Below are positions 2,512-18,728 of a stretch of DNA of 18,729 nt, piece by piece. Location: NCBI GenBank assembly GCA_020851075.1, contig JADZDL010000266.1, positions 1 to 18,729 of the forward strand, given 5' to 3'. The stretch comes from Planctomycetota bacterium. Lineage in GTDB: Bacteria; Planctomycetota; UBA1135; UBA2386. A program made the position numbers and the translations under genes. The notes beneath the pieces are model-generated. The model did no database searches. It worked only from the letters and a program-made list of their open reading frames with translations, and was not told the origin of the DNA. Every line of letters begins with the position of its first letter. Within the stretch, counting starts at the first letter, position 1.

Positions 2512-4299
2512 TCAATCCAGCTCGAACACTGGCCCGACGGGCCGAAACGGCAATCGTCTGCCGCCGATCAGCACGAACGCGTGGGACCGCGGGACCGAGA
2601 GCACTTCGCACATGCCGTCGGTGAGGATCAGGATGGGCCCATCGGGCGGAAACGTGTCGCTGTGCACGAGCAAGTCGATGCCGGGCTGCAGTCGAGTCCC
2701 GCCTCGCCCTTGCACCTTCAGGCGATCCGCGATCGCCATCGGATCCAGGTATCCAGCGTCATACGGCACCGCATCGTTGTAGACGACGCGCACGCGCGGC
2801 ACCGAGTGGCTGTCGGCGTAGGACGCAATCGCGCCGAGAGCCTTGCCCAGTTGCCGCACATCCATCGAACTCGAGGTGTCGAGCACCACACCAAACGTCC
2901 GGGCGCGCTGCAGATCCAACGGCGTCACATAACGCGGCCTCGGAATCTCCGGCGTGCTCGCCTGCCGCCGACTCGGCCGCGCGTAGGTGCGACGTTGCTC
3001 GATCGCCGGAAACCACGCGTCGAACCACTGCGCGAGCTTCACATCCCACGGAATTACCGGTTGCTGCAGCGCACGGATCTCTTCGATCAACCCTGCAGGA
3101 AGCAACCCACGCCCCTCGGTGTACAGATCGAGGCCGCGCGCGAGGCACGATCGGTAGAACGCGTCGAGATCCGTGAAGTCCCCAGGCCGACGCAACCCTC
3201 CTTCGATCATGTCGCCGAGCTGGCCACCGCGCAGGGTCAACAACTTGCGCGCGCGGCGCAGGTCCTTGGCAAGGCGATCGTAGATCTCTTCCGCACTCTG
3301 CCCGGCCAGCGCCGGATCGTGCAGCATGCCAAACGATGGTGGTGCGCCAACTCGCATCTCGAGCAACCACCCATTGATGACGAAGTCACACGCGATATTC
3401 CACAGATACGGATCGCGTCCACGCCGCCGATCGAGGTGGCGAAGGCCCACGTGCAGGTATTCGTGGGCGAGCACGAACTTCGCCTGTTCGAGCTGCAGGC
3501 CAGCGCGCGGACTCACGTAGACGACCTGCGCAACCTCGTCGATGGCGGCCACGGCGATATCAAACCGCGAACAGAGTTCGGGATCCTCGACGAGTTCGAA
3601 CGAGCGCGCGAGCGCCCCGAGCAACGGGTAGCTGCTGAGAAACCACTGCCTGGCCTGCATCGCGACGGACATCGTCGGAGCACCATCAAGCAACGATTTG
3701 CGCACCCCACCCGCCATGTCGACGGCGCTGCGCACCGCAGCGCGCAGACCCTGCGCAAACAGGGCCGCCCAATCGACCAGCACGCCCCGGGAGTCCTTGC
3801 GTGGACCATCGACGATCATGTCGGCGTGCCCGGGCGCCGTGGAAAGCCCCGTGATTGCCGACGGAATGCCATCGCGCCCGAACAACTCGTACAGTCGTTC
3901 TTCGTCGCGCGCCGTCGGCTGCTCAGGCAATTGGGCCGTCGCCGGCAGACGCCCGATCCCAAGCCCCTTCACGAAACGGGCAACGATCAGATCACAAGCC
4001 GCATTCCACGCGCGTGGGTTGTCGCGCACCTGGAAGTGACCAAACGCGAAGTGCAGCGTGCAGTGCGCGAGCACCCACAACCACTCGTCGGTCTCGGCGC
4101 GGCGTTTCGGGTGCAGCCAGATGCTGCCGCTCTGCGCCGCCACGGCCCAGCCGTCTTCGGGGCAGCGCCGGTCGCGATGAATGCCCAACTGGATCGCAAG
4201 CGGTCCAAACAACGGGTGGTTGCGCAAGGTGGCGATTGCCGCGCCGAGTCGCGCCTCGGCTTCGCGGCCCGCTTCGTCTCCACTGCGCTTACTTGCCAT
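2512..4299 (-). CDS. vWA-domain protein with two tandem DUF2201-like putative metallopeptidase modules (MoxR partner; 'VWA + metallopeptidase' family)
   Basis: The C-terminus has a vWA/MIDAS motif 'VVLDTSSSM' (DxSxS), followed by 'GGTRLQ' and 'LILTDG'. Two repeated modules are present, each of the form 'VLAHxxLH...WN(A/I)ACD(L/F)(I/V)'. The second module has a canonical HExxH ('HEYLH', 3451-3465). The first has 'HCTLH' (4051-4065). The ATG at 4297-4299 lies 5 nt downstream of the MoxR stop. The longer ORF start at 4371 would overlap MoxR by 83 nt. Confidence 0.8.
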   Translation of the reverse strand: MASKRSGDEAGREAEARLGAAIATLRNHPLFGPLAIQLGIHRDRRCPEDGWAVAAQSGSIWLHPKRRAETDEWLWVLAHCTLHFAFGHFQVRDNPRAWNAACDLIVARFVKGLGIGRLPATAQLPEQPTARDEERLYELFGRDGIPSAITGLSTAPGHADMIVDGPRKDSRGVLVDWAALFAQGLRAAVRSAVDMAGGVRKSLLDGAPTMSVAMQARQWFLSSYPLLGALARSFELVEDPELCSRFDIAVAAIDEVAQVVYVSPRAGLQLEQAKFVLAHEYLHVGLRHLDRRRGRDPYLWNIACDFVINGWLLEMRVGAPPSFGMLHDPALAGQSAEEIYDRLAKDLRRARKLLTLRGGQLGDMIEGGLRRPGDFTDLDAFYRSCLARGLDLYTEGRGLLPAGLIEEIRALQQPVIPWDVKLAQWFDAWFPAIEQRRTYARPSRRQASTPEIPRPRYVTPLDLQRARTFGVVLDTSSSMDVRQLGKALGAIASYADSHSVPRVRVVYNDAVPYDAGYLDPMAIADRLKVQGRGGTRLQPGIDLLVHSDTFPPDGPILILTDGMCEVLSVPRSHAFVLIGGRRLPFRPVGPVFELD

Positions 4300-5353
4300 C
4301 GCGCCGCTCCACGAGGCGCGGCAGGTCGCGCACGACCTCACGCAGCAACCACGCGGGCAGGTCCTTGCCACTACTCTGGTCCGCTACGACTACCTGCGCA
4401 ATCTCGAGGCTGATCGCAGCGAGCTGTTCGAGCAGGGCCTTCGCGCGATGCGCCATCTGGCGCTGCGCCCCACTCACGACACTCTCATCGGCCGGCAATT
4501 CGCGCACGACATGCGAACGAAACGCCTGGGCCAGGAAGTACAGCAGGTCGCGATCCTCCGCGCGCCCCGGCCAGCCGATCTCGCCATCGAGAATCGACTG
4601 CAACCGATGCCGGCCGCGCAACTGCTTCAAGAAGCCGAGGAACTGGCTCGCATGCGCCGGCGTCAGGCAACCGTACGCGAGCGCCTCGAGCGGCCGGCCC
4701 GTGACTTCGAGGCCGAACTCATGCAGGGCATCGCTGAGCATGTGCCACGAACGCGGCGTCGAGAACGGCTCTTCGTGCTTGGGCGGCTTGCTCCACAGGT
4801 GTTCGGGCCGCAGTTCGATGTACTCGAGCACCCACGCATGGATGCCACTCTCCCGCGCCCAGACCAGCCAATCCGTCACCGAGACGCGCAGGTGCACGTG
4901 CACCATACGATTGATCAGCGCCGACGACATGGTGCGCACGATGGCACTGTCCTGCGCCCGGTTGCCTGCCCCGATCACGATCGACCCTTTGGGCAGGTGG
5001 TATTCGCCGATGCGGTGTTCGTGGATCAGGCTGTAGAACGCCTTCTGCACCTCGTGACTGCACGCGTTGAGTTCGTCGAGAAACAGGCAGTACGGCTCTT
5101 CCCGCGCAATCGAGACCGGTGGGCAGAAGCGACTCTTGCCACCTTCGATCTGCGGCACGCCGATCAGGTCTTCGGGGGCCAACTGACTGCCGAGCAGCGA
5201 CACACACGGGATGCCAAGCTGTTCGGCAAAACGCGCCACGAGGGCCGACTTACCGATGCCCGGCGCGCCCCAGAGGAAGACGGGACGGACGACGGCGACC
5301 TCGAGCAAGAATGCAAATAGCTCGCTTTGGGAAAGGGTGATCGGGTCGTTCAT
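4289..5353 (-). CDS. MoxR-like AAA+ ATPase (AAA_5 family)
   Basis: Walker A 'LWGAPGIGKSAL' and Walker B 'CLFLDELN' are present, with a single AAA+ module of about 350 aa. It sits immediately upstream of a vWA-protein gene, the canonical MoxR-vWA pairing (RavA-ViaA, CbbQ-CbbO and NorQ-NorD-like). Start was chosen at the ATG at 5351-5353 ('MNDPITLSQ...'), about 30 aa before the P-loop. An in-frame GTG at 5416 is an alternative start. Confidence 0.8.
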   Translation of the reverse strand: MNDPITLSQSELFAFLLEVAVVRPVFLWGAPGIGKSALVARFAEQLGIPCVSLLGSQLAPEDLIGVPQIEGGKSRFCPPVSIAREEPYCLFLDELNACSHEVQKAFYSLIHEHRIGEYHLPKGSIVIGAGNRAQDSAIVRTMSSALINRMVHVHLRVSVTDWLVWARESGIHAWVLEYIELRPEHLWSKPPKHEEPFSTPRSWHMLSDALHEFGLEVTGRPLEALAYGCLTPAHASQFLGFLKQLRGRHRLQSILDGEIGWPGRAEDRDLLYFLAQAFRSHVVRELPADESVVSGAQRQMAHRAKALLEQLAAISLEIAQVVVADQSSGKDLPAWLLREVVRDLPRLVERRDGK

Positions 5354-5434
5354 CGGCTGGTAGTCATCGGCGGGTAGGTTGCACGATAAGGGCCTAGAAT
5401 GCCACGGGGGGGCCACCGGGAGCCACCCACTCGA

Positions 5435-5989
5435 CTACGCCAACTCCTCCCCCCGCTCCACCATCACTCGAAGCCGCAGCCGACACAACCGCAGGTGCGC
5501 CTCGACATCGCGCGGCCGCACCCAATCAAACCCGATGCGCTCCCAATCCGGATCGTCGGGATCGAGCCCGATCTCGCGGATCGCGTCGTGCACCGTGATG
5601 AAGAACTGCTTGCGGTACGGCAACAGGTAGCCGCCCTCGTCACGCAACGACGCCGCAGCTTCCTCATAGCCCGCAAACCACCGGTTCAGATACGGCGCCA
5701 TGCGATCGCTGTGCATCGTCACCGAACGCAACCCAGGCAGACACGACTCCAGCACCGCCGCCCACGACACAAAACCGTGCGCCAATGCGACCACCGCCAG
5801 AGCATCGGCGCGCGATACCAGGGCCGTCCCGTCGATGAGTTCCTCGAGCGAAGCCGACGCGAAGTGCGCCAACTGCGCAAACTGCACCGCCGCCGCGCGC
5901 GCGAGGTGCACGTCGCCGGACTTGAGGTCGCGCTGCAAGGCGCGCGCTTCCTGCCGGCAGCGGTCGACAAACCCCTCGTCGTCCTTCAT
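5435..5989 (-). CDS. Hypothetical protein (184 aa), no recognisable motif
   Basis: The ORF 'MKDDEGFVDRCRQEARAL...VMVERGEELA' has its ATG at 5987-5989, overlapping the YkgJ stop by 4 nt (ATGA). Codon usage matches its neighbours. I recognise no family, and it contains no TM segment or signal peptide. Confidence 0.55.
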   Translation of the reverse strand: MKDDEGFVDRCRQEARALQRDLKSGDVHLARAAAVQFAQLAHFASASLEELIDGTALVSRADALAVVALAHGFVSWAAVLESCLPGLRSVTMHSDRMAPYLNRWFAGYEEAAASLRDEGGYLLPYRKQFFITVHDAIREIGLDPDDPDWERIGFDWVRPRDVEAHLRLCRLRLRVMVERGEELA

Positions 5990-6378
5990 GCGGGATCCAG
6001 CCTTCCTGCGGGATCCAGCGGCTCGATGCCAGGACACGTGCGCTGCACCAGACGCAGCAGTTCGGGATCGCGGAGCACCTCGGGCCAGAACGGCCACTCG
6101 CGGCACTTCGCGGGCCGCACCGTATAGATCCCGCAGCTCGCTTCGGCGCCGTCCTGCAGGAACACGCAGCGGTTGCCAAACCCGTCCTTGAGCCGCACCC
6201 CATCGGGCTGCAGGTAACGACTCGCGAAGGCTTCCTCCGACAGGCCGAGTAACGCGGCGATCGCGGCCTTCTCGGCGGAGGTCACGCGCACAATGCCGCC
6301 CGGGATCGAACAACAATTGCCCGACCGACGGCACGTAAAGCGGAACGGGTACCCAGGCTGCGTATCCGCCACGTTCAC
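5986..6378 (-). CDS. YkgJ-family protein (CxxCxxCC zinc/iron-chelating domain, UPF0153)
   Basis: The N-terminal motif 'FTCRRSGNCCSIPGG' (C-x4-C-C, GxV) and later Cys residues ('GNRCVF', 'CGIY', 'AKCREW') are typical of the YkgJ/FliB-like Fe-S/Zn family. The GTG start at 6376-6378 overlaps the kinase stop (GTGA). The stop at 5986-5988 overlaps the next gene's ATG. Confidence 0.65.
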   Translation of the reverse strand: MNVADTQPGYPFRFTCRRSGNCCSIPGGIVRVTSAEKAAIAALLGLSEEAFASRYLQPDGVRLKDGFGNRCVFLQDGAEASCGIYTVRPAKCREWPFWPEVLRDPELLRLVQRTCPGIEPLDPAGRLDPA

Positions 6379-7469
6379 CGCCGACGGCGCCGGCTCCGCC
6401 GGTCGAACATGCCACCACTGCGCCCCAGCGGAGACCGCGCGCCACCGAGCTTCGGCTTGTCGCGCTGCTGCTGTTCTTCGAGTTCGCGCTGGTGGCGTAC
6501 CTGCTGCAGGAACGCCTCGACCTCGCGCTGCAGTTGTTTCGGATCCTGGAACCGCATCTCCGGATCCTTCGCCATCATCTTCTCGAGGAAGTAGTGCAGC
6601 TGCGGCGACAGGTGCAAGGCGCGAATGCGTTCGCCGGACAGCGACTCGAGCACCTGCTTGGCGAGCACTTCCTCACTCGTCTTGCCTTCAAACGGCAACG
6701 AGCCCGTCGTCAGGTGGTAGAGCGTCGCGCCGAGCGCGTAGATGTCGGCGCGCACGTCGAGCTGGTGGCTGCCGCGGGCCTGCTCGGGCGCGATGTAGTG
6801 CACCGTGCCCGCCGTCGTCTCGCCCGTGCCCTGGTCGTTCTGCGCCATCGCGAACCCGAGGTCGATGAGCACCGCGCCGCGCTCCTCGGACCACAGGATG
6901 TTGCCGGGTTTGACGTCGCGGTGCACGAGACCCCGTTCGTGCATCACATCGAGCGCGCTGGCGACCTCGACCGTGATCTCGAGCGCGGTCTCCTCGTCCA
7001 GGCGGCCTTCCTCGGCGAGCACGTCCTGCAGGCAGCGCCCGGGCACCTGCTCCATCGCGAAGAAGATCGTCTCCCCCTCCTTGGCGACGCGCAGCCCCTT
7101 CACGAGGTGCGGGTGTGCGAGGTCCATGAGCAGGCGCGCTTCCTTGACGAAACGTTCGGCCTGGGCCGGGTCCTTGGCGAGCTCGGGCCGCAGCACCTTC
7201 AGCGCGATCGGCGTGTTCGGCGCATCCTTGGCTCGATCCTTGGCGGCGAACACACGCCCAACCCCGCCTTCGCCGAGCAGCTCGCCCACTTCGTAGCGGC
7301 TGAGAACGGGCCGCGTGCCACCTTCATTGCGCGACCACTGCTCCCACTGCTGCGCCGTGCAGTGCCCGCGTTTCACGAGGAATGATCCGGCCGCACCGGA
7401 CAACATCGCTTCGCGCGCGAGTTCGGCGGGCACGAGGCCGCGATGCACGAGGATCGCCAGCAGCTTCAT
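6375..7469 (-). CDS. Hanks-type Ser/Thr protein kinase with N-terminal GspE-N/MshEN-like segment
   Basis: Kinase motifs are present: Gly-loop 'GEGGVGRV', 'IALKVL' (VAIK Lys), catalytic loop 'HRDVKPGNIL', 'DLGFA' (a DFG variant) and 'GTVHYIAPE'. The N-terminal ~45 aa ('KLLAILVHRGLVPAELAREAMLS...FLVKRGHCTAQQWEQW') resemble the tandem motifs of T2SSE_N/MshEN domains. Start taken as the ATG at 7467-7469. An in-frame GTG at 7481 is an alternative. Confidence 0.85.
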   Translation of the reverse strand: MKLLAILVHRGLVPAELAREAMLSGAAGSFLVKRGHCTAQQWEQWSRNEGGTRPVLSRYEVGELLGEGGVGRVFAAKDRAKDAPNTPIALKVLRPELAKDPAQAERFVKEARLLMDLAHPHLVKGLRVAKEGETIFFAMEQVPGRCLQDVLAEEGRLDEETALEITVEVASALDVMHERGLVHRDVKPGNILWSEERGAVLIDLGFAMAQNDQGTGETTAGTVHYIAPEQARGSHQLDVRADIYALGATLYHLTTGSLPFEGKTSEEVLAKQVLESLSGERIRALHLSPQLHYFLEKMMAKDPEMRFQDPKQLQREVEAFLQQVRHQRELEEQQQRDKPKLGGARSPLGRSGGMFDRRSRRRRR

Positions 7470-7683
7470 GTCCGGATTCACGTGGTTACAGGCTCTGTAG
7501 GTCCAACGACTTCGGGGGTTTCACGCACCAAGCGTCAAGTCATAACACGGATGCACCCGAAAAGGAGCGCAACCGAACCAGGCAACAAGGCACGACTTGA
7601 AGCACCCAGGAGCTGCGTTCGTCATCAAGTACTTCGACTTGATCGACGAGTTCATCAAAGTACGCTGCTGCTCGGAGGAGCTG
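7470..7683. promoter_or_regulatory. Divergent intergenic region between the kinase operon (-) and the Clp-D2-like gene (+); presumed promoters for both
   Basis: This ~200-bp non-coding stretch has locally reduced GC compared with its flanks. It contains an inverted repeat 'atcaagtacttcgacttgat' at 7627-7646. A Shine-Dalgarno 'ggagga' at 7674-7679 precedes the ATG at 7684. No consensus -35/-10 could be assigned with confidence. Confidence 0.4.
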
Positions 7684-8952
7684 ATGCAGGAAATGCATGC
7701 TTCCCCGATCACCAACAAGTCGACTTACCGCAATCGAGTCGTGCGCGCCTGCGTGCCCACGTTCGAATCGGACGTGCTCGCGGCTGTCCGCCGCATGGAC
7801 GAAGGGTACGACACCGAGATCGTCGAGGAGCTGCTCTACCAGATCTGCATCGACGTAAACCCGTCGCTCGAGATCCACCAGGTGAGCATCCCATCGCCGA
7901 ACGGCCAGAAGGCCCAGAGCGAATCGGAGGACATCTTCCTGCCGCGCCCAGGCAACGACAGCGCCCGCCAGAGCCTGTTCCGCCGGGTGACCAACCTCGA
8001 GCGCGGGCTGCGCCAGCAGATCATCGGCCAGGACGAGGGTATCACCTCCCTCGTGCGTGCCGTGAAGAAGGCCGCCGTCGGCCTGAAGCGCCCGACCCAC
8101 CCGGTCGGCACCTTCCTGCTCGTTGGCCGCACGGGCACGGGCAAGACCGAACTCGCCAAGGCCGTCGCGCGCAACCTGTTTGACGACCCGCAGGCCATGA
8201 TCCGCGTCGACTGCAGCGAGTATGCGCTGCCGCACGAGTACGCCAAGCTGATCGGCTCGCCGCCTGGCTACATCGGCCACAACGAAGGTGGTTTCCTCAC
8301 CGAGGCCATCAAGAAGAAGCCCAACAGCGTCGTGCTGTTCGACGAGGTCGAGAAGGCGCACTACAAGGTGCACAACCTGCTCCTGCAGCTGCTCGACGAA
8401 GGCATCATCACCGACAGCAAGGGCCAGACGGTCTCGTTCCACCAGGCGATGATCCTCATGACGAGCAACCTCGGCATCGAGAAGATCGACGCCGTGCGCA
8501 CCCGCATGGGCTTCTCCGCCGCGCATCGCCGCCAGAGCCTCCAGGACGTCGACCTGCGCAACGTCACGCTCGAAGCGCTGAAGGAGTTCTTCCGCCCCGA
8601 GTTCGTGAACCGCATCGACGAAGTCGTGATGTTCAACCCACTCGACGAGAAGGTCTGCCAGCGCATCGCCGGCAACATGCTGCGCGAGGTGTCGGACCTG
8701 CTGAAGCGTCGCAACATCACCGTGAACTTCTCGCCAGGCGTGCGGGTATTGCTCGCCAAGCAGGGTTTCTCCGAAGAATACGGCGCCCGCGAACTGCGCC
8801 GCCTCATCAAGCGCCGCATCGAGGATCCGCTCACCGAGATGATCCTCGACCACGACCTCGGCCAGGGTGCCGTGGTCACGGTGCGCGTGCGCAACGGCGA
8901 CTACAGCCTCGCCTGCGGCGGCCAGGTGCCGCGCGCCGTCCAGCCGGCCTGA
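7684..8952 (+). CDS. Stand-alone ClpA/ClpC D2-type AAA+ ATPase (AAA_2 + ClpB_D2-small) with novel ~110-aa N-terminal region
   Basis: The D2-like sensor/Walker region reads 'IIGQDEGI...', 'LLVGRTGTGKTELAKAVA', 'IRVDCSEYALPHEYAKLIGSPPGYIGHNEGGFLTEAIKKKPNSVVLFDEVEKAH', 'LLQLLDEGIITDSKGQTVSFHQAMILMTSNLG', and aligns almost position-by-position with ClpB/ClpC D2. The C-terminal 'FRPEFVNRIDEVVMFNPL' corresponds to the D2-small domain. The segment 'RTRMGFS' sits where ClpA/ClpC carry the IGL/VGF ClpP-docking loop. No Clp-N, D1 or M-domain is present. Start chosen at the ATG preceded by GGAGGA. The ATG at 7693 is an alternative. Confidence 0.8.
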   Translation: MQEMHASPITNKSTYRNRVVRACVPTFESDVLAAVRRMDEGYDTEIVEELLYQICIDVNPSLEIHQVSIPSPNGQKAQSESEDIFLPRPGNDSARQSLFRRVTNLERGLRQQIIGQDEGITSLVRAVKKAAVGLKRPTHPVGTFLLVGRTGTGKTELAKAVARNLFDDPQAMIRVDCSEYALPHEYAKLIGSPPGYIGHNEGGFLTEAIKKKPNSVVLFDEVEKAHYKVHNLLLQLLDEGIITDSKGQTVSFHQAMILMTSNLGIEKIDAVRTRMGFSAAHRRQSLQDVDLRNVTLEALKEFFRPEFVNRIDEVVMFNPLDEKVCQRIAGNMLREVSDLLKRRNITVNFSPGVRVLLAKQGFSEEYGARELRRLIKRRIEDPLTEMILDHDLGQGAVVTVRVRNGDYSLACGGQVPRAVQPA

Positions 8953-10307: not shown

Positions 10308-10502
10308 ACGGCGGGAACCGGCGGCTTCTCGACAGATTTCCGGGTATTTCGTCCACATCTTCGATACATCCGCAGGCGATGCCCTCGCCCTGCGGCAGCC
10401 AGCCGAGCGCACGGTGCGCAAGGCCGGCTTTCCGAGTCGCTGCAACCTGAGTCGCTGGCAGGTGGGTTACCCACCCGCAGCCCCAATGGAGAACAGGATC
10501 CC

Positions 10503-11069
10503 ATGAGCACGGTCTTCCTTTATTGCGCCGCAATCGGTGGAACGATCCTGGTCCTGCAGTTCCTCATGCTGCTGCTCGGCGCTGGTGGGGACGGGGATGG
10601 TGGCCACACCCACGCCGGCGGCGACCTCGGCGATGGCCACGTCGACATCGGCCACGACCAGGCGTCGTTCCTGAAGCTGCTCTCGCTGCAGACCGTGTCG
10701 ACGTTTGCGACGTTCTTTGGCCTCATCGGCCTCGCCACCGAAGGGCTCGCCTGGTCTCCGATCGCAGTGGTCGGGGCGGCGACCATGGCCGGAGCCGCTG
10801 CGCTCTGGTTTGTCACCCGGCTCATGCACGGCCTTGCCCGCCTGCAATCGAGCGGCACCGTGAACCTCAAGAACGCGATCGGCCACACCGCCAACGTCTA
10901 CCTGCGCATTCCGCCGCACGGCCAAGGCCACGGCCGGGTGATGCTGCAGGTGCAGGGCCGCACCGTCGAATGCACCGCGGTGAGCCGCGGCGACGAGATC
11001 CCGACCGGCGCCGAAGTGCGCGTCATCGAACACAAGGACGACGACATGCTCGTCGTCGAGCCCGCCTGA
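10503..11069 (+). CDS. NfeD-family membrane protein (short form, YqiJ/YuaF-like; TM segments + C-terminal OB-fold)
   Basis: Two hydrophobic segments are followed by the C-terminal β-rich 'GHTANVYLRIPPHGQGHGRVMLQVQGRTVECTAVSRGDEIPTGAEVRVIEH', the NfeD OB-fold. The gene sits immediately upstream of a flotillin gene, the classic nfeD-flotillin pair. A 'GGAGA' SD lies ~10 nt before the ATG. Confidence 0.75.
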   Translation: MSTVFLYCAAIGGTILVLQFLMLLLGAGGDGDGGHTHAGGDLGDGHVDIGHDQASFLKLLSLQTVSTFATFFGLIGLATEGLAWSPIAVVGAATMAGAAALWFVTRLMHGLARLQSSGTVNLKNAIGHTANVYLRIPPHGQGHGRVMLQVQGRTVECTAVSRGDEIPTGAEVRVIEHKDDDMLVVEPA

Positions 11070-11148
11070 CCAGCCCATAGCCGGGCGCACCTTTCCCCAC
11101 CTCTTCCCCCACGTCGCTGGAGCCAAGGTTCCGGCAGGAGACCCCTCG

Positions 11149-12789
11149 ATGTTTGCGCTGATCGACGAAGACCCCAACCTCTTCCTCTTGCTCACGGTCG
11201 CGGCCACCGCCCTCATCCTGCTCGGCTTCGTGATCCTCGTCGTGAAGCGCTACAAGCGCTGCCCGAGCAACAAGGTGCTCGTGATCTTCGGCAAGGTTGC
11301 ATCGGGCCAGTCCGCACGCTGCCTGCACGGCGGTGGCGCGTTCGTGTGGCCACTGATCCAGGACTACGCGTTCCTGTCGCTCGATCCGATGCAGATCGAG
11401 ATCCCGCTGCGCGGTGCGCTGTCGGCCGAGAACATCCGCGTCAACGTGCCGAGCGTGTTCACCGTCGCCGTCGGCACCGGGGCGGCCGTGATGCAGACCG
11501 CGGCCATCCGCCTGCTCGGCCTCGACCCGCGCCAGGTCATGAAGCAGGCCGAGGACATCATCCTGGGCCAGCTGCGCCAGGTGATCGCGTCGATGACGAT
11601 CGAGGACATCAACCGCAACCGCGACAAGTTCCTCGACAGCGTGCAGAACTCGCTGACACCCGAGCTCGAGAAGATCGGCCTCGTGCTCATCAACGTCAAT
11701 ATCACCGACATCACCGATGAGTCGGGCTACATCGAGGCGATGGGCCGCAAGGCCGCGTCCGAGGCGATCCAGTCGGCCGAGATCGACGTCGCGCAACAGC
11801 AGAAGCGCGGTTCGATCGGCGTCGCCGAAGCCAAGCGCGAGCAGGACGTGCTCGTCAGCAACGCCGAAAAAGTGCGCGAGATCGGCACCAAGGAAGCCGA
11901 GCGTGAGAAGCTCGTGCGCCTCGCGGAGCTCGACAAGGAGACCGGCATCGGCAAGAGCCTGGCCAACCTCGAACAGCAGACCGCGATCAAGGACCAGGAA
12001 CGGCGCATGCGCGTGCAGGTCGCCGAGGCCGAAGCCGAAGCGGTGACCGGTGAGAACCTCGCCCGCGCGAAGAGCGTCGACGCCGAAGCGAACCTCAAGG
12101 TCCGTCAGGCCGAAGCCTACCAGCTGACCGAGACGCGCCGTCGCGAAGCCGAAGCCAAGGTGCGCGAAGCGCAGTATCTGGCCGAAGCACGCGCCGCCGA
12201 CGCGATGGCGACCAAGATCGAAAGCGAACAGCGCGCCGAGTTCGAAGCTTCGGCGAAGGCACAGAAGGCCAAGCTCATCGTCGATGCCGAAGCGCAGGCC
12301 GAACAGATCCGGCTGCGGGCGCAGGCCGAAGCCACCGCGACGTTCGCGCGGCTCGAAGCGCAGGCGCGCGGTGAATACGAGATCCTCGCCAAGAAGGCCG
12401 AAGGTCTGCAGCGCATCGTCGAAGGTTGTGGCGGCGCACAACAGGCGTTCCAGTTGCTCATGCTCGAGCACCTGCCGCAGATGGCGGAAACGGCGGCCAA
12501 GGCGATCGCGAACGTCAAGTTCGACAAGGTCGTGGTCTGGGACGGCGGCCCCGGCAAGGACGGCAAGAGTGCCACCGCGGGGTTCCTGCAGGGCCTCGCT
12601 GGCAGCTTGCCGCCGATGCTGCAGATGATGCGCGATATCGGTGGTGTGGAGATGCCGGCCTACTTCGGCAAGCTCGCCGAGGCTCCGGGCGCGATGGCGG
12701 CGCCGGCCGCGGCCTCACCCACAGCACCGGCGGTGCCTTCCCCCGTGGCGGCGTCGAGCAAGCCGAACGCAGGCCCGCAGAAGGGCTGA
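11149..12789 (+). CDS. Flotillin-family SPFH/band-7 protein (FloT/YqiK-like)
   Basis: An N-terminal TM segment is followed by an SPFH domain, then a long Ala/Glu-rich coiled-coil ('AEAEAEAVTGENLARAKSVDAEANLKVRQAEA...') and the flotillin C-terminal region. The tail is Ala/Pro-rich. An SD 'aggag' lies 8 nt upstream of the ATG. It is paired with NfeD upstream. Confidence 0.85.
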   Translation: MFALIDEDPNLFLLLTVAATALILLGFVILVVKRYKRCPSNKVLVIFGKVASGQSARCLHGGGAFVWPLIQDYAFLSLDPMQIEIPLRGALSAENIRVNVPSVFTVAVGTGAAVMQTAAIRLLGLDPRQVMKQAEDIILGQLRQVIASMTIEDINRNRDKFLDSVQNSLTPELEKIGLVLINVNITDITDESGYIEAMGRKAASEAIQSAEIDVAQQQKRGSIGVAEAKREQDVLVSNAEKVREIGTKEAEREKLVRLAELDKETGIGKSLANLEQQTAIKDQERRMRVQVAEAEAEAVTGENLARAKSVDAEANLKVRQAEAYQLTETRRREAEAKVREAQYLAEARAADAMATKIESEQRAEFEASAKAQKAKLIVDAEAQAEQIRLRAQAEATATFARLEAQARGEYEILAKKAEGLQRIVEGCGGAQQAFQLLMLEHLPQMAETAAKAIANVKFDKVVVWDGGPGKDGKSATAGFLQGLAGSLPPMLQMMRDIGGVEMPAYFGKLAEAPGAMAAPAAASPTAPAVPSPVAASSKPNAGPQKG

Positions 12790-16240: not shown

Positions 16241-17119
16241 TCAGTTGCCGAACACGAGGTCGTAGGCGTTCAACGGCACGAAAGTTGGCGTTCCGCCAAT
16301 CGAATCGACGCGGAACCCCTGGAACGTGAGCACCGTGCCAATCCAGCCCGTCCCGGACGGAATGCTCATCGAGTAGGTGCCGAAGCCCGCGAACGCGATC
16401 GGGGACGGCGACGTCTGGATCAACAGTTCGCCCCCAAACAGCGGCGTCGGCGTAGCGAGGCCACCCGGCGCGTAGGCGAGGAACGTGAGGATCGTATTGA
16501 TGTTGCCCGCGATCACCCCCTGCCACGTGGTGCCCAATACGGGCAACGTCGCGCAGGAGAAGTCCTGCGGGTTCAGCCCGGATCCGATGTGCAGGTCGCA
16601 GCGCGCCGCCGCGGGGTCGACGATCGCCAGCGTGTCAAAGTTGAAGTCGGAAACGAAATCGATCTCCAGCGTGTCCAGGATCGTGTTCGTGAAGCCGAAG
16701 TAGTTGTTCGGCTGCGATTGGTTCCAGGTGCCCGAGAACGAGTCCATCGTGACGCCGTTGAAGATCGCGCGCATCGACGACGGCGCCGACGTGCTGATCT
16801 GGTGGTAGACGAACGAACAAGCCGTGATCGGACTCGCGAACTGGATGCGCAGCGTATTGGGCACCCCGCTGAAGTCGTTCGTGAGGAAGCCCCCGACGAG
16901 GTTGTTCGACACGCCCGTCGTGAAGTAACTCGCGTGGGTCACCGTGATGCCCGGGAACTGCGTTGAGACCGCCGTGAAGTTCGGCAACACGTTGGCGCCG
17001 AAGTCGATGACACTCGTCGAGTTCGTCAAACCCGAGTTGGCGGCGATGATGGCCTGACCACACAGGGTGCTGGGGAGAAACGACGCCACGAGGGCGACCA
17101 ACAGGGAGGAGATGCGCAT
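16241..17119 (-). CDS. Secreted Ser/Thr/Asn/Phe/Gly-rich protein of unknown function (293 aa)
   Basis: The ATG at 17117-17119 gives 'MRISSLLVALVASFLPSTLCGQA' (signal peptide). The body is rich in T, S, N, F and G ('FTTGVSNNLVGGFLTNDFSGVPNTLRIQFASP...'), suggesting a β-rich extracellular protein. Local GC drops to roughly 52-60% against ~68% in the flanks. The ORF-track 624-aa version is an artefactual in-frame extension running antisense through uvrC. Confidence 0.6.
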   Translation of the reverse strand: MRISSLLVALVASFLPSTLCGQAIIAANSGLTNSTSVIDFGANVLPNFTAVSTQFPGITVTHASYFTTGVSNNLVGGFLTNDFSGVPNTLRIQFASPITACSFVYHQISTSAPSSMRAIFNGVTMDSFSGTWNQSQPNNYFGFTNTILDTLEIDFVSDFNFDTLAIVDPAAARCDLHIGSGLNPQDFSCATLPVLGTTWQGVIAGNINTILTFLAYAPGGLATPTPLFGGELLIQTSPSPIAFAGFGTYSMSIPSGTGWIGTVLTFQGFRVDSIGGTPTFVPLNAYDLVFGN

Positions 17120-17270
17120 GGGGTGCCTAACCAGATTGGGGACAGGAACGCATGACTGTAGCAGAGAGCGTGGCACCCTGGGGCCGGTACGTCTTTCTGG
17201 CATCTCCCGCAATCGCGCCCGCCAGTGGTGTTCGCCAGCGGGGCAACGACGGCACAGCGAGAGCCCGCGA

Positions 17271-18728
17271 CTACTCCTGCTCGCCGTGCAGCGCCGTCCA
17301 CACCGCGTGCGCGACACTCTCCGGCAATCCCGGCATCGCCAGCAGATCCTCGCGCGAGGCGTCCTTGAGCCCCGACAACGATCCGAAGTGCCGCAGCAGC
17401 GCTTTGCGCCGCGTGGGGCCCACGCCCGGAATCTCGTCGAGTTCGCTGCCGATGCGGCCACGCGTCTTGCGGTGGTAGGTGATCGCAAACCGGTGCGCCT
17501 CGTCGCGCAACGCCGCGATGAGCAGTGTTTCGGGCGCCTGCAGCCGCAGCGGCACCGGCGTTTCCTGGTCCGGCAGGAAGATGCGTTCGCCGCTCTCGGC
17601 CCGATGGTCCCCGACCCCTTTGAGTCGACTCTTGGCGAGCCCACACAACCGCAGATCGTCCTGCAAACCCAGCTCCGCGACGGCGCGAACGGCCGCCGCA
17701 AGCTGACCGCGGCCACCATCGACCACGAGCAGGTCCGGCAGGTCTTCGTCGTCGCGTTCGAGGCACAACGACAGACTGCGGCGCACGGCTTCCTGCATCG
17801 CCGAGAAGTCGTCGCCAGCGTGCTCCTTCGAGATCTTGAACTTGCGATACTGCGCGCGTTCAGGCTCACCCGCCACGAAGCAGACGCGCGAGGCGACCGT
17901 GCTGGTGCCCTGGATCGTCGAGATATCGAGGCAATGCAGCCGCTGCGGCGGGTCGGGCAGATCGAGCAGCGCAGCGAGTCGTTCGGCGCCGGCACGACGC
18001 CGCGCCTCCGCATCGGCCGCCATCGCGTCGGCGAGCTGCGCATTCTGCACGGCGAGTTCGAGATGGCGGCGCCGATCGCCGCGCTGCGGCACGTGCAGTT
18101 CGACCTTGCCACCACGTTTGTGTTCGAGCCACTGCGTGATGATCAGGGCCTCGGCGGGCTGGAACGGCAGCAAGACCATCGGCGGCACATACCGATCCCC
18201 TTCGTAGAAGCGCCCGAGCAGTTCGCCGAGCAGCAGTTCGTCGGGCAGGCCACTGCGGAACGCGTGGCGCCGGCAGTTTTCGAGTGCGCCGCCGCGGAAC
18301 GAGAGGAACGCGACCGCCACCTCCTCGCCGCTGCGATGCATGCCGAGCGCATCTTCATCGCCCACGTTGGCGATGACGGCCTGTGGTTCGGCCGTGAACT
18401 GCAACGCCTGGATCTGCTCCTTCAGCGCCTGCGCACGCTCAAACTCGAGATTCTCGGCGGCCGCCTGCATGCGGCCGCGCAGATCGTGCAGCACTGGCCC
18501 GACCTCCCCGCGCAGGATCCGCACCGAGTGGTCGAGCAACCCTTCGTAGGCTTCGCGCGTGACGAGGTCGACACACGGCGCCGGACAACGACCGATCTGG
18601 TGCTTGATGCAGGGGCGCGTGCGGTTGGCAAAGACGTGATCGCCGCAATCGCGCAACGGCACGATCTTGTGCAGCAAGCGCAGCGTGCGGCGCACGGCCT
18701 TCGCCGAGGCGAACGGGCCAAAGTACAA
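17271..18728 (-). CDS. uvrC: Excinuclease ABC subunit C (UvrC), C-terminal ~485 aa; N-terminal GIY-YIG part lies beyond the window end
   Basis: The UVR/UvrB-interaction region is present ('EFERAQALKEQIQALQ'). So are the UvrC central region, the RNase H-like endonuclease domain, and a C-terminal (HhH)2 ('IPGVGPTRRKALLRHFGSLSGLKDASREDLLAMPGLPESVAHAVW'). The ORF is open to the window edge. Confidence 0.85.
   Translation of the reverse strand: MYFGPFASAKAVRRTLRLLHKIVPLRDCGDHVFANRTRPCIKHQIGRCPAPCVDLVTREAYEGLLDHSVRILRGEVGPVLHDLRGRMQAAAENLEFERAQALKEQIQALQFTAEPQAVIANVGDEDALGMHRSGEEVAVAFLSFRGGALENCRRHAFRSGLPDELLLGELLGRFYEGDRYVPPMVLLPFQPAEALIITQWLEHKRGGKVELHVPQRGDRRRHLELAVQNAQLADAMAADAEARRRAGAERLAALLDLPDPPQRLHCLDISTIQGTSTVASRVCFVAGEPERAQYRKFKISKEHAGDDFSAMQEAVRRSLSLCLERDDEDLPDLLVVDGGRGQLAAAVRAVAELGLQDDLRLCGLAKSRLKGVGDHRAESGERIFLPDQETPVPLRLQAPETLLIAALRDEAHRFAITYHRKTRGRIGSELDEIPGVGPTRRKALLRHFGSLSGLKDASREDLLAMPGLPESVAHAVWTALHGEQE

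Follow-up and report, generated by a model that had tools for sequence, protein, structure and literature searches.

The unfoldases known to partner the peptidase ClpP are ClpX, ClpA, ClpC and ClpE, which carry a hydrophobic-Gly-Phe/Leu tripeptide on a flexible loop after sensor-1. Class-1 Clp/Hsp100 proteins (ClpA, ClpB and ClpC) are built from tandem AAA+ modules, D1 and D2, together with a Clp_N repeat domain and, in ClpB and ClpC, a coiled-coil M-domain, and ClpI likewise keeps two AAA+ rings. A D2-only Hsp100 is known in human mitochondrial CLPB (Skd3), which bears ankyrin repeats and acts as a disaggregase independently of a peptidase, while the arginine kinase McsB marks substrates for ClpCP. 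Here we analyzed an 18,729-nucleotide stretch of DNA from a Planctomycetota bacterium (contig JADZDL010000266.1 of assembly GCA_020851075.1), referred to as the window, which carries a complete gene (7597-8952, plus strand as for all coordinates unless stated otherwise; TTG start, stop codon at 8950-8952) for a Clp ATPase of 451 residues with a single AAA+ module. The protein belongs to an uncharacterised class of Clp/Hsp100 unfoldases with a distinct architecture and a new N-terminal domain, which occurs across several phyla and of which we found no description in the literature; divergent from its gene lies that of a Hanks-type Ser/Thr kinase. With moderate confidence, we read the protein from its sequence as a single-ring unfoldase of the ClpC-D2 type that would hand substrates to ClpP through a loop tipped by Met-Gly-Phe (MGF).

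The family lacks the class-1 combination of tandem D1 and D2, Clp_N and M-domain, but all motifs of class-1 D2 modules are present in it, namely Walker A and B, the GYxG pore loop, sensor-1, the Arg finger and the sensor-2 GAR, as is the tripeptide of the ClpP partners on a flexible loop after sensor-1. ClpC, which occurs in Firmicutes, Actinobacteria and cyanobacteria, is particularly close, its D2 module being 42-43% identical over approximately 305 residues, with a loop of equal length and an AGF or VGF tip that aligns with the hydrophobic-Gly-Phe tip of the family. Unlike ClpC, however, the family has no Clp_N repeats, D1 ring or M-domain, and consequently no MecA or McsB adaptor sites, and it has another N-terminal domain. 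Like ClpX, it is predicted to combine a single AAA+ ring with a small recognition domain at the N-terminus and a ClpP loop of the IGF type, whereas the motors are only 24% identical, the family is without the C4 zinc-binding domain and its gene does not lie beside clpP. Skd3 is comparable in that it, too, is an Hsp100 with a D2 only, its N-terminal domain being unrelated, but the family keeps a ClpP-type docking motif and shows no ankyrin or other Pfam match N-terminally. The likeness to McsB-ClpC is one of functional analogy only, in that a ClpC-type unfoldase and a protein kinase are coupled genetically; in the present case the kinase is of the Hanks Ser/Thr type, and the N-terminal domain is unrelated to the phosphoarginine-binding Clp_N. 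A parallel of another kind is ClpI of Actinomycetota, a Clp unfoldase class that was likewise defined bioinformatically by its own N-terminal domain (PMC10149685), and that domain differs from the one found here.

A single AAA+ module of the ClpC-D2 type

Pfam assigned AAA_2 (E = 2.4e-52) and ClpB_D2-small (E = 1.5e-20) to the ATPase with no other specific match, and returned nothing N-terminal of AAA_2 and no Clp_N, D1, M-domain or ankyrin match. Among the NCBIfam profiles, that of ClpB gave the highest score, although it was matched only through D2, at positions 555-850 of 853 (329 bits against a cut-off of 1232). The ClpA profile was matched at 446-733 of 734 only, again D2 (307 bits against 993), and those of ClpV, ClpK and ClpG likewise matched through their second AAA+ module only, far under their cut-offs. 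Because Pfam and NCBIfam matched D2 parts only, we conclude that the protein consists of a single D2-type module with its lid and is without Clp_N, D1 or M-domain, in agreement with the initial annotation of this DNA; 5' of the gene there is intergenic DNA and then the divergent kinase gene. Nor is the protein a known ClpX or HslU paralogue with a known N-terminal domain, the ClpX profiles (TIGR00382 and NF003745) scoring 47 and 35 bits, far below their cut-offs of 359 and 371. In a HMMER search against PDB chains, the best matches were the D2 modules of Staphylococcus aureus and Bacillus subtilis ClpC (best E = 1.2e-82), followed by ClpB, ClpC1, ClpE, Hsp104, ClpA and human CLPB (E = 6.6e-55), with ClpX at 2.8e-6. 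The structure points the same way: a model of the ATPase from AlphaFold2 (AF2), with a predicted local distance difference test (pLDDT) of 87 and a predicted template modelling score (pTM) of 0.73, was best superposed on the ClpC chains of ClpC-ClpP complexes solved by cryo-electron microscopy, and covered the isolated nucleotide-binding domain 2 of ClpB at a template modelling (TM) score of 0.9.

The AAA+ large domain of the ClpA/B/C D2 type (Pfam AAA_2; 8101-8625), on which the Pfam, NCBIfam and PDB sequence and structure matches agree, contains Walker A GRTGTGKT (8125-8148), the pore-1 loop GYIGH (8266-8280), Walker B VVLFDEVE (8329-8352), sensor-1 TSN (8461-8469) and the Arg finger R339 within FRPEFVNRID (8611-8613), and is followed by the D2-small (lid) domain detected by Pfam (8641-8883), with the sensor-2 GAR at 8782-8790. 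The two Walker motifs were checked in the translation and are conserved. Conservation was assessed throughout on 228 non-identical members, comprising representatives with identities as low as 33%, orthologues taken from the genome loci and proteins of other phyla, and in this set the sensor-1 N291 is invariant, the Arg finger R339 is kept in all but one sequence (227/228) and the pore-loop Y225 in 226. Directly before the pore loop lies a signature of the family, R[IV]DCSE[YF][AS]x[PS]HEYAKLIG, with C206 present in 225 members, whereas ClpA/B/C read DMSEY...S[RK]L[IV]G at this position; compared with ClpC alone, DCSEY..HEYAKLIG stands against DMSEY..S(R/K)L(I/V)G. With these motifs in place, the product is an ATPase of the ClpA/B/C-D2 type whose threading machinery is intact.

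A Gly-Phe tip at the ClpP-docking position

In S. aureus ClpC, residues 660-680 form the P-loop, the AGF tip of which docks into the hydrophobic H-site of ClpP, and G672D/F673D abolishes the ClpC-ClpP interaction (PMC12521514). A P-loop-like flexible loop of the ATPase (residues 294-323; 8476-8565) aligns to this segment and contains the tripeptide M304-G305-F306 (8506-8514), flanked on both sides by variable residues and, from its alignment to the Clp docking motifs and its conservation, a putative ClpP H-site docking motif. HMMER paired R-M-G-F of the query with F-A-G-F of S. aureus ClpC, M-G-F corresponding to A671-G672-F673 by chain count, and the search against PDB likewise paired MGF with VGF of B. 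subtilis ClpC. In a MAFFT alignment, IGL of Escherichia coli ClpA and IGF of ClpX share the MGF columns, whereas ClpB, which is no binder of ClpP, has a shorter loop reading GEL. The alignment of ClpA, ClpC, ClpX and ClpB therefore confirms the earlier placement of MGF at the position of the ClpP-docking tripeptide, and the tripeptide falls inside the docking loop rather than outside it.

Across the 228 members, G305 and F306 are each retained in 227, on par with the sensor-1 N291 and the Arg finger R339, while residues 301-303 and 307-323 are free to vary, also by insertion and deletion. Position 304 is most often Met (78 members), Ile (64), Pro (60) or Val (17). Within the AAA+ module of the AF2 model, the loop also has the lowest confidence (pLDDT approximately 61), which fits a flexible docking loop. 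Because two invariant residues are found inside an otherwise unconstrained flexible loop, we interpret the GF loop as a docking tip.

In the mechanism that we propose, one ClpC-type AAA-2 module per subunit probably forms a single hexameric ring, the N-terminal domain on a flexible linker above the ring would select substrates or adaptors, and the GYIG pore loops would thread the polypeptide, powered by ATP hydrolysis. The flexible M304-G305-F306 loop would then dock into the hydrophobic pockets of the ClpP tetradecamer, so that the ring would act as a ClpX-like ClpP partner on a ClpC-D2 chassis. If this is true, the family would constitute a further class of ClpP partner, in which the D2 motor of the two-ring enzymes serves as one ring with a recognition domain of its own, and this class would be spread over Planctomycetota and several candidate phyla without cultured model organisms. 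For mechanistic studies, the family would also provide a ClpC-type motor in a naturally minimal form.

Several observations weigh against the reading of a kinase-paired ClpP partner. Approximately one-quarter of the members have Pro before GF (PGF, the Riflebacteria type), which is unusual for known ClpP-docking motifs, and one orthologue has ISF in place of xGF. The 10-kb flanks of about 96 loci contained no clpP, E. coli ClpP having served as the query for the 83 related Planctomycetota loci among them. The kinase gene is absent beside the members of the Wallbacteria, Muiribacteriota and Riflebacteria type, and its link to the ATPase is one of synteny only. Moreover, D2-only relatives, human CLPB/Skd3 among them, operate independently of a peptidase, and the ATPase might accordingly be a stand-alone, ClpP-independent remodeller or disaggregase, the bacterial counterpart of the D2-only mitochondrial protein, with the GF loop serving ring assembly or another internal function. 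The strong match to human CLPB and the equal single-module layout would agree with such a role, as would the leading NCBIfam score of the ClpB D2 profile, the lack of a clpP nearby and the occurrence of a 632-residue variant in a chaperone neighbourhood (Lon, DnaJ and DnaK). However, ClpB itself has a shorter loop without the motif at this position, a near-invariant GF in a freely varying flexible loop is the pattern of a docking tip and not of a structural element, and the ATPase has no M-domain for coupling to Hsp70. We regard a peptidase-independent role as unlikely and retain ClpP as the proposed partner.

The N-terminal domain and the extent of the family

The family-specific N-terminal domain occupies residues 6-101 (7612-7899) and bears the motifs KYFxxxDxF..VR, Y44 and LYxxCxxVNPxLEIHxV. 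Modelled alone with AF2 (pLDDT 92.3, pTM 0.83), it folds into a beta-hairpin followed by four helices. A variable, predicted-disordered linker (residues approximately 98-120; 7888-7956), with pLDDT below 50 at residues 98-111, connects it to the motor, and the length and sequence of this linker vary family-wide. The domain contains a set of residues that are invariant or nearly so throughout the family, namely K11, D17, F19, R23, Y44, L80-Y81, V87-N88-P89, L91 and I93. When 1.84 billion cluster representatives were searched by phmmer with residues 1-112, just 88 clusters matched at E ≤ 1e-3. In every full-length-looking match (approximately 400-505 residues) the domain stood at the N-terminus, and it was found only ahead of this D2-type motor. 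The exception in position is the 632-residue variant (P0154/P0216; 2170-4068 of locus L094), which has about 210 extra residues ahead of the domain and whose gene adjoins those of Lon, DnaJ and DnaK. Neither the PDB sequence set nor Pfam yielded a significant match to the domain profile, which bears out the earlier statement that the N-terminal region matches nothing known; fold matches were weak, and a profile search of a word-indexed protein database with the domain alignment returned fragments only. A zinc finger was considered for this domain and rejected. C24, C25, C52 and C84 are all invariant among close orthologues, but C24 and C25 vary in distant members and C52 is found in 105 of the 228 sequences, only C84 being kept (218/228).

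Among the viral models of BFVD, the only significant match to the domain was A0A6J5MDF8 (Foldseek E = 2e-4, TM score 0.74, 21% identity), a 488-residue 'AAA domain containing protein' of an uncultured Caudovirales phage with a similar N-domain fold, which, judging by the predicted structures, is presumably a relative of the family. A phage origin of the ATPase was nevertheless rejected: tblastn matches in INPHARED were without the N-terminal domain, and many look bacterial and of the ClpB/ClpC type (two carry a ClpB annotation, and a Salmonella genome is among the records), while a pattern scan of IMG/VR was empty.

The family gene was found in at least 278 species genomes when one genome for each GTDB species was scanned for two N-domain peptide motifs. 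The motifs were taken from a narrower alignment of 8 sequences, the 36-sequence N-domain alignment being too divergent, and the count is a lower bound because such peptide patterns fit the closer clades only. Nearly all of the 80 best loci carry labels of uncultured Planctomycetota or of planctomycete metagenome-assembled genomes (MAGs); a few are labelled otherwise or generically, and one is a short contig binned as Luminiphilus. A search from the distant member P0180 added 118 further proteins of 366-528 residues, the labels of which include Candidatus Wallbacteria, Muiribacteriota, Riflebacteria/Ozemobacteraceae and Cloacimonetes. All 118 match the hidden Markov model of the N-terminal domain (E approximately 1e-28 to 1e-32 among the 14 matches listed), and a simple pattern recognised the xGF loop in 116. 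A neighbour-joining tree of AAA modules was star-like, with the D2 modules of ClpA/B/C as one clade within the radiation. The tree does not decide between loss of D1 from a ClpC and an ancient single-ring sister lineage, but it hints that D2-type proteins with a single ring may match the ClpA/B/C D2 modules in age.

Outside Planctomycetota the gene keeps different company. In genomes of the Wallbacteria and Muiribacteriota type, purD is followed by the ATPase gene and that of a HEAT-repeat protein of approximately 640 residues (L088, 8001-11352; L097, 10001-13941; L098, 1615-5575), purD abutting the ATPase gene or overlapping it by up to 4 nt at these three loci, and a Riflebacteria member heads an array of unknown genes. 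The HEAT-repeat protein is a candidate adaptor or client. Operon-like arrays of this kind, together with the departure of the PGF variants from the classical motif, might also suggest that the GF loop docks onto a partner other than ClpP, for example another peptidase or a factor particular to one lineage, of which the HEAT-repeat protein and the kinase would be instances. Yet the neighbours differ between phyla while GF is universal, which favours a universally present partner such as ClpP; to our knowledge, moreover, every experimentally defined hydrophobic-Gly-Phe/Leu loop at this position (ClpX, ClpA and ClpC) binds ClpP, and this counts against a different partner, which we consider decidedly improbable.

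A divergent kinase gene in Planctomycetota

The kinase gene (6375-7481, minus strand) encodes 368 residues with a clear protein kinase domain (Pfam Pkinase, E = 4e-47; motifs ALKV, HRDVKPGN, DLG and APE). When the window proteins were compared by tblastn with 83 related Planctomycetota loci, the kinase gene was found immediately upstream of the ATPase gene and divergent from it in 81, the two exceptions being cut by contig ends, and the kinases were 53-79% identical across these loci. The spacer between the two genes measures approximately 115 bp (7482-7596), with a median of 114.5 bp across loci, and not the 200 bp previously given for the shared region. The next gene on the minus strand encodes a Cys-cluster protein of 130 residues of the YkgJ/CxxCxxCC type (5986-6378; Pfam PF03692, E = 9e-9), its GTG start overlapping the kinase stop codon (GTGA). 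YkgJ queries taken from related loci matched in the window and in 66 fetched loci, and the window gene is 75% identical to that of L001. Even in three deeper clades (loci L090, L099 and L100), where the ATPase is just 38-41% identical to that of the window, a divergent kinase is present (39-43% identical over residues 4-322), and two of the three also have a CxxCxxCC gene. Identities of the ATPase and the kinase are strongly correlated (r = 0.97 across 75 loci), which indicates long co-inheritance but is in itself no evidence of interaction. Close orthologues adjoin housekeeping genes, including valS, recQ, uvrC/uvrB and a CNNM gene, a CNNM/CorC gene lying downstream in 37 of the 83 loci, and this neighbourhood argues for a core cellular function.

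The same synteny bears on whether the ATPase could be part of a mobile anti-phage defence system, for instance as a DolB-like ClpB-type ATPase or within a kinase-based system. PADLOC returned partial matches of the ATPase to PDC-M37B (E = 5.7e-35) and DolB (E = 2.2e-24) and strong PD-T4-6 matches of the kinase, and the phage-labelled protein described above has a structurally similar N-terminal domain. The ATPase matches, however, are confined to the AAA core, a generic part (residues 101-269 in the 422-residue query), those to PD-T4-6 amount to generic similarity among Hanks kinases, and the IMG/VR pattern scan held no relative; the PADLOC partner models matched none of seven window proteins (the ATPase and six upstream gene products). 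In at least 80 species genomes, the ATPase-kinase pair, vertically conserved with identities of 62-91%, occupies a single chromosomal site surrounded by housekeeping genes; synteny as stable as this, of a core-genome kind, speaks against an island of mobile defence genes. A role in defence is thus very unlikely in our view.

Beyond the YkgJ gene, the minus strand of the window continues with an unknown open reading frame (ORF) of 184 residues (5435-5989, joined by an ATGA overlap), a MoxR-like AAA gene (4289-5416) and a DUF2201_N/VWA-like gene for a putative metallopeptidase (2512-4371). An ORF of 336 residues on the same strand (5435-6445) was rejected as an operon gene, being partly an alternative-frame artefact over the YkgJ gene. 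The initial annotation had described a kinase-MoxR-vWA operon and suggested the ATPase as its co-regulated second AAA+ arm on the opposite strand. The divergence from the kinase gene held, as did the association with the kinase itself (81 of 83 loci), but the YkgJ gene and the 184-residue ORF lie between the kinase and the MoxR-like gene. The tight, co-directional packing of all five genes, some with overlapping stop and start codons, would be in keeping with a common pathway; tblastn, however, found neither the MoxR-like nor the DUF2201/VWA gene in any of the 83 related loci. We accordingly rejected the MoxR-vWA coupling, a second arm of such a pathway being extremely unlikely, and the two genes look like a lineage-specific addition behind the kinase operon.

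In the Planctomycetota branch, the genes of the ATPase, the Hanks-type Ser/Thr kinase and the YkgJ-type protein make up a conserved head-to-head unit. Most likely, the kinase controls the unfoldase or marks its substrates. A more elaborate version is phospho-Ser/Thr-directed degradation by all three proteins, in which the kinase would mark substrates or activate the unfoldase, the N-terminal domain would read the mark and the ring would feed ClpP, as a Ser/Thr counterpart of McsB-ClpCP in bacteria that lack the latter; we consider this version speculative and rather improbable. As far as we know, whether Ser/Thr phosphorylation directs or gates regulated proteolysis in bacteria is still an open question, and the strictly conserved kinase pairing provides a testable entry to it. 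The N-terminal part of the kinase is an observation in its own right: about 60 residues (MKLLAILVHRGLVPAELAREAM...; 7305-7478, minus strand) are retained in the kinases of 39-43% identity, with the alignment starting at residue 4-5. This segment had no Pfam match at E ≤ 0.01, and we presume that it resembles a helical motif of the MshEN/T2SSE_N type.

Translation start, intergenic motif and other genes of the window

The ATPase gene had been taken to start at ATG 7684 and to encode 422 residues, but ORF analysis and comparison with orthologues place the true start at TTG 7597, the ATG being internal to the ORF. The 29 residues upstream of 7684 (KHPGAAFVIKYFDLIDEFIKVRCCS) are kept in orthologues, whereas the Met at 7684 is replaced by Leu in most of them. 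A start codon stands at the position homologous to 7597 in 78 of the 83 related loci (TTG in 41, GTG in 35 and ATG in 2), and the peptide 5' of it is not conserved. No other in-frame start lies ahead of the invariant IKYFD in the window, the preceding Val codon being GTC. Since the 29 residues and the start codon are conserved, the upstream peptide is not and there is no alternative in-frame start, we assign the gene to 7597-8952. Its length agrees with that of orthologues in a collection of 5.8 billion proteins, which are 80-97% identical and 441-452 residues long; close orthologues with an organism label are nearly all from Planctomycetota or Planctomycetes MAGs. The preference for a start codon other than ATG (TTG or GTG in 76 of the 83 loci, ATG in 2) may represent a conserved low-efficiency initiation signal. 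At the other end of the protein (8911-8949), close orthologues often end in QPA (31/77), QSA, LPA or GSA after a variable stretch, and this tail could be a C-terminal degron or docking tail.

The intergenic region shared with the kinase gene contains a conserved bipartite promoter-like motif, CGTCAAGTC-N14-CCCGA (7533-7560), some 60-65 nt ahead of the ATPase start. GTCAAGTC is found 54-68 nt upstream of the ATPase start in 55 of the 83 loci; in 1.2 Mb of sequence, this ATPase-upstream site accounts for 55 of its 63 plus-strand occurrences, against 5 occurrences of the reverse complement. A CCTCAAG...CCGATAC variant is seen at loci that are more distant. From its sequence and position, this is read as a conserved promoter-like motif of the ATPase gene's own.

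Three further genes of the window merit a brief description. An SPFH/Band-7 protein is encoded at 11149-12789 and is 88-92% identical across 16 related loci, above its neighbours. It is adjoined by a 249-residue unknown gene on the minus strand (10467-11216) that co-occurs with it. Near the end of the window, an ORF of 624 residues (16241-18115, minus strand) has no Pfam match; the real gene there is uvrC, which lies in another frame (17271-18728) and runs off the window end.

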